A DNA stretch of 64,000 nucleotides, from assembly GCF_013315695.1 (NCBI RefSeq), contig NZ_CP054353.1. One strand, given 5' to 3'. Of the stretch, positions 56,488-57,906 are shown piece after piece. Made by a program: the position numbers and the translations under genes. The notes under the pieces are model-generated. The model searched no databases, was not told the DNA's origin, and saw nothing but the letters and a program-made list of their open reading frames with translations. This stretch comes from Escherichia coli (lineage in GTDB: Bacteria > Pseudomonadota > Gammaproteobacteria > Enterobacterales > Enterobacteriaceae). Numbering within the stretch: the first letter of the stretch is position 1; each line of letters begins with the position of its first letter.

Positions 56488-56799
56488 TTATTCGGGGAAT
56501 AACGCCCTGATATTTCCGGCCATCTGATTGGTTATCTGTGCGGTTGGTACTGGCTGTGACACGGGGCGTTCTGTCCTGGTTTGTGTCACGGATAACGCCT
56601 CATCGTCAGCCCATGCAGCCAGTCGGTGAGCCTCTGCTGGATTCATTTTCAGAAGTGCCAGCCCGGCCAGAAAAGCCACGCGTTGGCCGCTTTTGCGGGC
56701 TTCTGGTGTAAGGCTGTCCAGCCAGGCGCATGCTTCGCTTTCGTTCTTGACGGCCGCAGGCTTCAGATAGAAACTTATCCGTCTGGTTGGTGTCGTCAT
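56488..56799 (-). CDS. ParR-like centromere-binding protein
   Basis: 104 aa from the internal Met with a strong AAGGAG RBS; RRISFYLKP (RHH-like N-terminus), LAGLALL and C-terminal ALFPE resemble plasmid R1 ParR; directly downstream of parM. Confidence 0.6.
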   Translation of the reverse strand: MTTPTRRISFYLKPAAVKNESEACAWLDSLTPEARKSGQRVAFLAGLALLKMNPAEAHRLAAWADDEALSVTQTRTERPVSQPVPTAQITNQMAGNIRALFPE

Positions 56800-56803
56800 T
56801 GGT

Positions 56804-57763
56804 TTACTCCTTGTCCATTGCGTACAGCCCATTAACCAGAGCAAACTGTGGCACCCCGTCCGCGATGAAAGTCGCATTAACTCCGCAGGCTTCGCGGATA
56901 GCGGGTGCCACAATCTCCGCCCCTCCACCGACAACCATCACCCGCCCATAACCCGAAAAACCCGCCAGCGCGCGGATCACGCGTTGTTTCAGTGTTTCTT
57001 CCTTTTCACGAATAACCGCCATCAGGCTGTCGTAATGCGCGTCATTGTGGATGTGCTGGCGCAGCCAGGCTTCATCATGGCGATGTTCGATAATGGTATT
57101 GGCGATATGGTGGCTGGTACGCATACCGTTAGTGGCCATCACCGACAGTACGGCATCGGCCATCAGAGAAACGCCTACGTGTGGATCGCAAAACACCTGG
57201 CTGATACCTGCCAGTTGTCCCTGAACCTTTGCCACATCCAGCGTGGTTCCGCCCAAATCCACAATCAGCAGTGATTCAAACGGACTCATGTCAGCCAGTG
57301 CCTTAAAGCCAGCCGGAATGGATTCAGGCATAACCCGTACGTTACGGATAGTGAATGCTTCGCCGTTCTGGTACTCCACCGGGCGCATAACGTTCGCTTT
57401 TTTGCGGTTGATGTTGGCCATGTCCGGCTGTGCGTTTGTGTCGAAATACTCGCTCAGTGGCAGGGTGACAACCACATCCACCTCCTGTGGCGTGATGCCT
57501 GATTTGACCAGCGCGTGATGAATGGCAATGACATTCACATCGCTGTACTGGTATTGCGTGTCGGTCGTCTGGACAAAGCGATCGCTGACCGGATCAAAAC
57601 CATAGCGCACGCCATCAAGCATGTAGTTCGCGGGCTGCGTGCCACCGAACGGCGCAGACCATTCCGACTTGAAGCTGTTCGGGCTGATGGCGTTGCGGCG
57701 TTCGCCGTTCTCAGTCCATGCCAGCTTGATGTTGGTGGAGCCGTCGTCGATACAAATTTTCAT
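56804..57763 (-). CDS. parM: ParM/StbA actin-like segregation ATPase
   Basis: 319-aa ORF; MKICIDDGSTNIKLAW, SPNSFK, YSDVNV..HHAL, VMPESIPAG, DLGGTTLD, GISxxxGDxxxGVSL and VVGGGAE align with my recollection of R1 ParM at roughly 45 percent identity. Confidence 0.85.
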   Translation of the reverse strand: MKICIDDGSTNIKLAWTENGERRNAISPNSFKSEWSAPFGGTQPANYMLDGVRYGFDPVSDRFVQTTDTQYQYSDVNVIAIHHALVKSGITPQEVDVVVTLPLSEYFDTNAQPDMANINRKKANVMRPVEYQNGEAFTIRNVRVMPESIPAGFKALADMSPFESLLIVDLGGTTLDVAKVQGQLAGISQVFCDPHVGVSLMADAVLSVMATNGMRTSHHIANTIIEHRHDEAWLRQHIHNDAHYDSLMAVIREKEETLKQRVIRALAGFSGYGRVMVVGGGAEIVAPAIREACGVNATFIADGVPQFALVNGLYAMDKE

Positions 57764-57800
57764 GTCGCTTTTCCTTATGTTGATTAATTAATCGTTTACA

Positions 57801-57906
57801 GGATTTTTAAATCCCGTTTTTGCCTGTTTTGTGCGCACTTCATATATCGCGGCACGTTTTTTGCTCATTTACGGGATTTGTGAATCCCGTTTCTGTCTGT
57901 TTTTTG
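57801..57906. repeat. Two 33-bp direct repeats, each with an internal palindrome, spanning the A stop codon and the parM upstream region
   Basis: ggatttttaaatcccgtttttgcctgttttgtg at 57801 and gggatttgtgaatcccgtttctgtctgttttttg at 57873. Confidence 0.45.

Follow-up and report, generated by a model that had tools for sequence, protein, structure and literature searches.

An actin-type parM-parR partition cassette beside the replication gene of a P2-family prophage in Escherichia coli

Described actin-type systems and the prophage locus

The parMRC system of plasmids R1 and R100 (parA locus; StbA/StbB) is arranged in the order repeats, parM, and parR, and the R1 centromere parC, located 5' of parM, consists of 2 x 5 direct 11-bp iterons. 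A normally integrated element also carries an actin-type partition locus: srpMRC was shown to reduce the loss of SXT/R391 ICEs, the excised circle of which is replicated by the relaxase (Carraro et al. 2015, PMC4489591). Its centromere is small, as srpC comprises four 13-bp repeats (PMC4489591), short direct and inverted elements located 5' of the M gene. The AlpAC system of the Corynebacterium glutamicum prophage CGP3 tethers the circular DNA of the phage to filaments of an actin-like protein (Donovan et al. 2015, PMC4446434). The P1-like phage-plasmid D6, a true plasmid prophage of 91 kb, encodes a StbA-type ParM. Rousset et al. (2022; PMC9122126) noted a putative partition system in approximately one quarter of P2-like phages and suggested that it might serve maintenance as a plasmid.

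The cassette analyzed here belongs to an integrated P2-family prophage of E. coli and was studied in a window of 64,000 nucleotides, that is, the whole stretch of DNA under analysis (Table 1). It follows the R1 order, with repeats 5' of parM and parR after it. The window ParM was 46.7% identical, end to end, to the IncF R1-type ParM and retained all nucleotide-binding motifs. The two ParR proteins belong to the same Pfam family and share an N-terminal strand-helix-helix and a similar C-terminal tail; their identity is only 28%. The carriers differ, as R1 is a theta-replicating low-copy plasmid and the cassette resides in an integrating rolling-circle phage. In place of the iterons, the cassette has two 42-nt units with internal dyads. 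Unlike in R1, no promoter was recognizable between the repeats, and the distal repeat overlaps the coding end of gpA.

Similar to the cassette, srpMRC is found in a normally integrated element with an excised circle replicated by a HUH-type nickase, and the toxin-antitoxin system of SXT/R391 ICEs has a counterpart in the hok-like gene of the window prophage. However, SrpM and SrpR are distant from R1 ParM and ParR, and SrpR has no ParR homology, whereas the phage proteins are clear members of the R1 family; the function was demonstrated for the ICE locus, whereas for the phage cassette it is proposed here. AlpAC/alpS also consists of an actin-like ATPase and a DNA-binding adaptor encoded in an integrated prophage, with the adaptor site 5' of the operon, and it acts on circular phage DNA after induction. 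It belongs to another actin-like family and another host phylum, and the resemblance is functional only. The D6 ParM was 47.8% identical to the window ParM, but D6 is maintained as a plasmid, in contrast to the integrating P88 lineage.

Table 1. Positions of the cassette and of neighboring features in the window
Feature	Position	Strand	Description
Hok/Gef-like ORF, 46 aa	31589-31729	(-)	contains GSLCEIR; prophage left end adjoining host ihfA
gpA-gpQ variable hotspot	54892-56487		contains the DUF3800 gene
DUF3800 gene	55450-56256	(+)	PADLOC candidate defence model PDC-M04A (2.6e-35); phrog_3732
parR	56488-56799	(-)	ribbon-helix-helix adaptor, 103 aa; disordered linker and C-terminal helix predicted
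parM	56804-57763	(-)	actin-fold ATPase, 319 aa
Leader	57764-57791	(-)	parM ribosome-binding site AAGGAAAA and TTAATCAA box
Proximal 42-nt repeat	57792-57833	(-)	dyad 57798-57817; candidate parC half and operator
Distal 42-nt repeat	57865-57906	(-)	dyad 57871-57890; candidate parC half
gpA-type replication endonuclease, 957 aa	57840-60713	(-)	phrog_91 'nicking at origin of replication' (3.3e-275)
gpA C-terminal extension	57840-58270		lineage-specific, ~140 aa; minus strand
C4 antisense RNA	61432-61519	(-)	Rfam at gathering score, 79 bits
isrK Hfq-binding sRNA	61555-61629	(-)	Rfam at gathering score, 63 bits

Gene products, prophage setting, and upstream repeats

In the window, the cassette is flanked on the left by capsid, terminase, and portal genes and on the right by gpA and the early region, which bears out the placement of the cassette inside an integrated P2-like prophage by the sequence-only reading, an earlier interpretation of this DNA. 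Host DNA on the ihfA side was matched up to ~31.9 kb of the window. The gpA gene is located directly 5' of parM in the same orientation, at a distance of 76 nt.

The segment from 56300 to 57950 was matched at 100% identity in the chromosomes of the E. coli strains A24 and H22, in which the prophage occupies the site between ihfA and btuC. A24 was rejected as a match for the entire window, as BLAST gave ~98% identity over 55148-64000 only and 74-77% for the late and structural genes (33500-55000). Because the late genes are only ~75% identical, the window holds a different mosaic prophage from that of A24, and the break in identity at ~55148 indicates a recombination junction on the cos/hotspot side of the portal gene. 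In the A24 prophage, ogr and the tail genes are separated by an hxsDBCA cluster (His-Xaa-Ser radical-SAM; L011, 9174-12571), a locus that is not in the window; this position represents a second cargo site of the phage lineage. The hok/gef gene was also found in P88 and in the circular record NZ_CP148288.1, and it constitutes a second R1-style maintenance module of the lineage. The C4 antisense RNA and isrK are adjacent in the prophage early region. Alignments of gpA to other P2-like gpA proteins ended at residue 813, and the remaining C-terminal extension terminates in the distal repeat; in Hafnia, a separate 167-aa ORF was found at this place (L008, 5453-5956).

The claim that the 319-aa product is a ParM/StbA homologue was confirmed. 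Pfam identified StbA_N (PF06406, 2.5e-82) and the ParM C-terminal domain (PF21523, 1.6e-68), and the alignment to R1 ParM in the PDB (1mwk, E=1.3e-92) extended over residues 2-316, that is, from end to end. The nucleotide-binding motifs DDGS(6), PES(146), DLGGTT(169), and GGGA(279) were all retained, and ParM thus has the phosphate-1, phosphate-2, and adenosine motifs of the actin-fold ATPase that characterizes type II partition. Matches of ParM in NCBIfam were sub-threshold only (PRTRC_D, 22.7 bits; PRK13917, 19.8 bits; far under the cut-offs), and NCBIfam gave zero matches for ParR or the DUF3800 protein. Neither ParM nor ParR was matched by PADLOC.

The small ribbon-helix-helix adaptor gene expected immediately 3' of parM in a type II system was found in parR, which starts 4 nt after the parM stop codon. 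The ATG at 56799 is preceded by AAGGAG at a distance of 7 nt, and a 148-aa ORF starting with TTG, which had been given by the mechanical ORF list, was discarded as an artefact in favor of this start. ParR matched Plasmid_stab_B in Pfam (1.3e-23) and, over its full length, phrog_2515 'partition protein'; the description of a ParR-like gene in R1 order with its own ribosome-binding site therefore stands, and the profile searches that had been proposed as a check recovered both proteins. With IncF ParR, it shares the N-terminal strand (RRISFYLKP vs. RTIAFKLNP) and the second helix (QRxAxLAGLAL), and the C-terminal tails can be aligned (NIRALFPE vs. KKNAMKLIN). This kinship to R1-type ParR was missed by the PDB sequence search and by Foldseek. 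The AlphaFold model has an extended N-terminus, helices at residues 18-28, 32-52, and 54-65, a low-confidence linker at 67-85, and a C-terminal helix at 87-100. The tail xNIxALFP was kept in all alleles and genera and is a candidate ParM-binding segment.

Paired repeats of 33 bp had been noted upstream of parM; the pair was found, but each unit measured 42 nt. The two direct repeats are 83% identical and start 73 nt apart. The proximal repeat is located 29-70 nt 5' of the parM ATG, and the distal repeat overlaps the final 22 codons of gpA, the stop codon of which is at 57840. Each repeat contains an 8+8 dyad, ACrGGATTT-N3-AATCCyGT. This pattern occurred in the 64 kb at these two sites only, with four strand-matches against 0.17 expected, and none of 100 shuffled sequences reached four.

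Across 59 distinct E. coli-type upstream sequences, the leader was almost invariant and the dyad arms were mostly constant, with one arm position varying in 13 of the 59 and with variation peaking at the dyad center. A clear excess of conservation in the repeats over their flanks was not found among these 59 variants, and the pattern was weak. The TTAATCAA box 5' of the parM ribosome-binding site was common to three genera, Plesiomonas and Hafnia included. The Plesiomonas prophage (L007) has two 26-nt copies with a spacing of 72 nt, the first of which, as in the window, is located in the gpA 3' end, and these share the core CGGG-N10-CCCG with the window repeats. Serratia and Enterobacter have inverted repeats of 14-20 nt with GGCAAAAAyGGGA in common.

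A scan of 56200-58200 detected no sigma-70 consensus promoter, and only weak -10 candidates were seen by eye; the autoregulated-promoter part of the analogy to parC is therefore unsupported. No minus-strand terminator was detected between gpA and parM in the scan. The repeats were also considered as plus-strand terminators (hairpin and T-run), and this was rejected because no plus-strand gene enters the region and the coding strand has no T-run after them. On these features, a parC-like site is a plausible assignment for the repeats. At the level of sequence, the locus is thus confirmed as a genuine actin-type partition cassette consisting of parM, parR, and candidate binding repeats.

Distribution, backbone position, and selection

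The 1.65-kb cassette segment was found at 95-100% identity in 1307 of 5426 complete E. coli genomes (approximately a quarter), with up to three copies in some genomes. The products are annotated by PGAP as 'plasmid segregation protein ParM' and 'plasmid partitioning/stability family protein'. In a search of 50,697 phage records (E<=1e-5), ParM was encoded by 14 P88/Xuanwuvirus-type records and by D6. The same 14 records were the carriers of P88-type gpA (14/14), and none of the 368 other P2-like records with a gpA homologue had ParM. The expectation that P2-type phages normally lack such systems was thus supported. The sequence-only reading had also counted a known backbone function, ubiquitous in P2-like phages, against itself; this applies in part, namely to the P88 lineage, in which the cassette is backbone, PGAP-annotated, and published, and not to the 368 other P2-like records. 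Both the observation and the main hypothesis of that reading had been made by Rousset et al. (2022; PMC9122126) and were therefore already in print. A functional study of this cassette was not found in our literature searches. The cassette is a known component, fixed in the P88-like lineage, and not an unusual cargo.

Divergent relatives were obtained by protein search and contig look-ups, as the nucleotide contig scan gave three near-identical loci only. The nearest more distant ParM proteins were those of Plesiomonas (62% identical), Hafnia (62%), Serratia (58%), and Enterobacter (53-54%), and in prophages of all four genera the order gpA, parM, parR, variable cargo, and portal was kept. In a neighbor-joining tree of 106 sequences, the ParM proteins of P88-type prophages and those of the other genera formed one clade of 16, and the ParM proteins of a Dickeya ICE, of an integrated plasmid, and of an IncF plasmid fell outside it.

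The boundary between backbone and cargo was located at the parR stop codon, where homology to relatives terminates. Where at least 1 kb of sequence followed parR (66 loci), 22 unrelated cargo types were found 3' of it, and on the other side gpA was immediately 5' of parM in 73 of 77 IMG/VR loci. Cargo of the gpA-gpQ hotspot is recognized by variable presence or a defence-family match, and the cassette showed neither (present in 14 of 14 records; no PADLOC match). Its fixation in the P88 lineage and its constant position behind gpA, kept also in the four other genera, do not support the suggestion of hitch-hiking cargo. The suggestion of joint action with the adjacent DUF3800 gene was not upheld either, considering the end of homology at the parR stop codon, the 22 cargo types, and the presence of DUF3800 in one other of 80 IMG/VR loci (L045); it was also found in phage Chuche. 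As judged from these comparisons, the DUF3800 gene is independent hotspot cargo, unrelated to parMR.

The dN/dS ratio of parM was 0.045 over 67 alleles, which indicates strong purifying selection, and parM was intact in 79 of 80 IMG/VR loci. An inert relic or selfish hitch-hiker of plasmid origin, useless to the phage, is hardly credible against these values. Such an origin would fit the closest non-phage relatives, which are plasmid ParM proteins; however, synteny was maintained across five genera at 53-62% ParM identity, the phage ParM proteins are monophyletic, and among 72,556 plasmids there was no ParM between 95% and 52% identity to that of the window.

Variability was much greater in ParR than in ParM: the 80 loci encoded 52 different ParR sequences. 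Two allele types, ~51-55% identical to each other, were distinguished in 57 and 19 of 76 loci, and the dN/dS of type-1 alleles was 0.22. The first 18 codons and the upstream repeats are shared by both types, and the accompanying ParM proteins are 98.7-99.7% identical. In 48 distinct alleles, the linker (residues 63-92) was hypervariable, and conservation was seen in the DNA-binding N-terminal region and in the NIxAxFP motif of the C-terminal tail. This is the pattern that would be expected of a working adaptor. No co-variation of ParM residues with the two ParR allele types was found.

The existence of at least two ParR types with a hypervariable linker could also be read as a sign of exclusion or incompatibility, in which the ParR/parC complex or ParM filaments would disturb competing plasmids or related superinfecting phages. 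The position next to the gpA-gpQ defence hotspot and the multiple copies in some genomes would be in line with this. We regard it as very improbable, because neither protein was matched by PADLOC, the presence of the cassette is invariant, unlike that of hotspot cargo, and both ParR types have the same N-terminal DNA-reading strand and the same repeats.

Role proposed for the cassette in the phage life cycle

We lean towards the interpretation that the cassette is a type II ParMRC segregation module, belonging to the conserved backbone of P88-like P2-family phages and acting on the free phage circle. Its most likely task is the segregation or positioning of phage DNA in the circular, non-integrated state. 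From the homology, fold, motif retention, synteny, selection, and repeat uniqueness given above, we infer the binding of ParR to the repeats, the filaments, the timing of expression, and the fitness benefit as follows. ParR dimers would bind the two dyad repeats 5' of parM through the N-terminal ribbon-helix-helix, and these repeats would form a small parC-like centromere with four half-sites in total. The conserved C-terminal helix of ParR would capture the ends of ATP-ParM filaments, and insertional filament growth between two ParR/parC complexes would push sister DNA copies apart.

Expression of the cassette would be coupled to that of the early (replication) operon and would follow infection or induction. 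Read-through from this operon is suggested because gpA is 76 nt upstream on the same strand with no recognizable promoter or terminator between. At this stage, the phage genome would be a free circle undergoing gpA-dependent rolling-circle initiation, and the likely benefit would be that the circle is not lost or mis-distributed at division before integration or packaging. The precedents of SrpMRC and AlpAC in integrative elements and the hok-like gene of the same prophage speak for this interpretation. The number of repeat units, two compared with the ten iterons of R1, counts against segregation, as do the variation within the repeats, the lack of a recognizable sigma-70 promoter, the failure to find ParM residues co-varying with ParR type, and the almost exclusively integrated state in complete E. 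coli genomes.

The main alternative, to which we assign a minor share of probability, is a lytic role similar to that of AlpAC. Filaments would position or transport replicating circles after induction for efficient replication and packaging, and inheritance would not be served. P2-type phages package monomeric circles, and no terminator separates gpA from the cassette, the genes of which come last behind it; both points are compatible with such a role. There is also the precedent of AlpC/AlpA in an integrated prophage, where the adaptor binds 5' of its own operon and the system is induced early and needed for efficient replication (PMC4446434). However, the window ParM is closely related to true plasmid-partition ParM proteins (47-52% identical) and probably not to AlpC. 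The lytic role and segregation are not mutually exclusive.

A further alternative is the plasmid maintenance put forward by Rousset et al. (2022; PMC9122126), in which P88-like phages would persist long-term as facultative low-copy plasmids; gpA would replicate them, ParMRC would segregate them, and hok would police them. One 'plasmid' record of 34,461 bp (NZ_CP148288.1), the only circular extrachromosomal one found, contains an entire P88-like genome, including an integrase, parMR, and hok, and Hok-like genes also occur in P88 and in the window prophage. Nevertheless, this appears unlikely, as 1453 of the 1455 places of the cassette in complete E. coli genomes were chromosomal and two were on plasmid replicons, and an integrase was always present. 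NZ_CP148288.1 could be excised DNA from spontaneous induction, because another strain of that study has a near-identical phage in its chromosome. Two other records were rejected as episomes: the sequence deposited on its own as 'phage 520873' proved to be an excised prophage that includes a host gene, and a Shigella 'plasmid' record is a linear contig. Phage-plasmids are extrachromosomal prophages, usually without an integrase, whereas the relatives examined here encode an integrase and are overwhelmingly integrated; the cassette itself is located in a chromosomal prophage and not on an autonomously replicating plasmid. As ~1453 of 1455 places are integrated, the extrachromosomal phase would be short or rare.

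With segregation of the free circle as the preferred interpretation, a bolder proposal can be formulated, which we offer as a tentative one: P88-like phages would be facultative 'integrative phage-plasmids', combining rolling-circle replication by gpA and the hok gene with a ParMRC centromere located where gpA ends. If true, they would be capable of heritable extrachromosomal carriage when integration is delayed or impossible, as a phage counterpart of the SXT/R391 ICE strategy, and an R1-type ParM machine would work with a minimal centromere of two dyads.

The retention of a partition machine by an integrating rolling-circle phage, under strong selection and in several enterobacterial genera, raises the possibility that temperate phages, like some ICEs, actively segregate their excised or pre-integration form. 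This would bear on the efficiency of lysogenisation, on prophage stability, and on the boundary between phages and plasmids.
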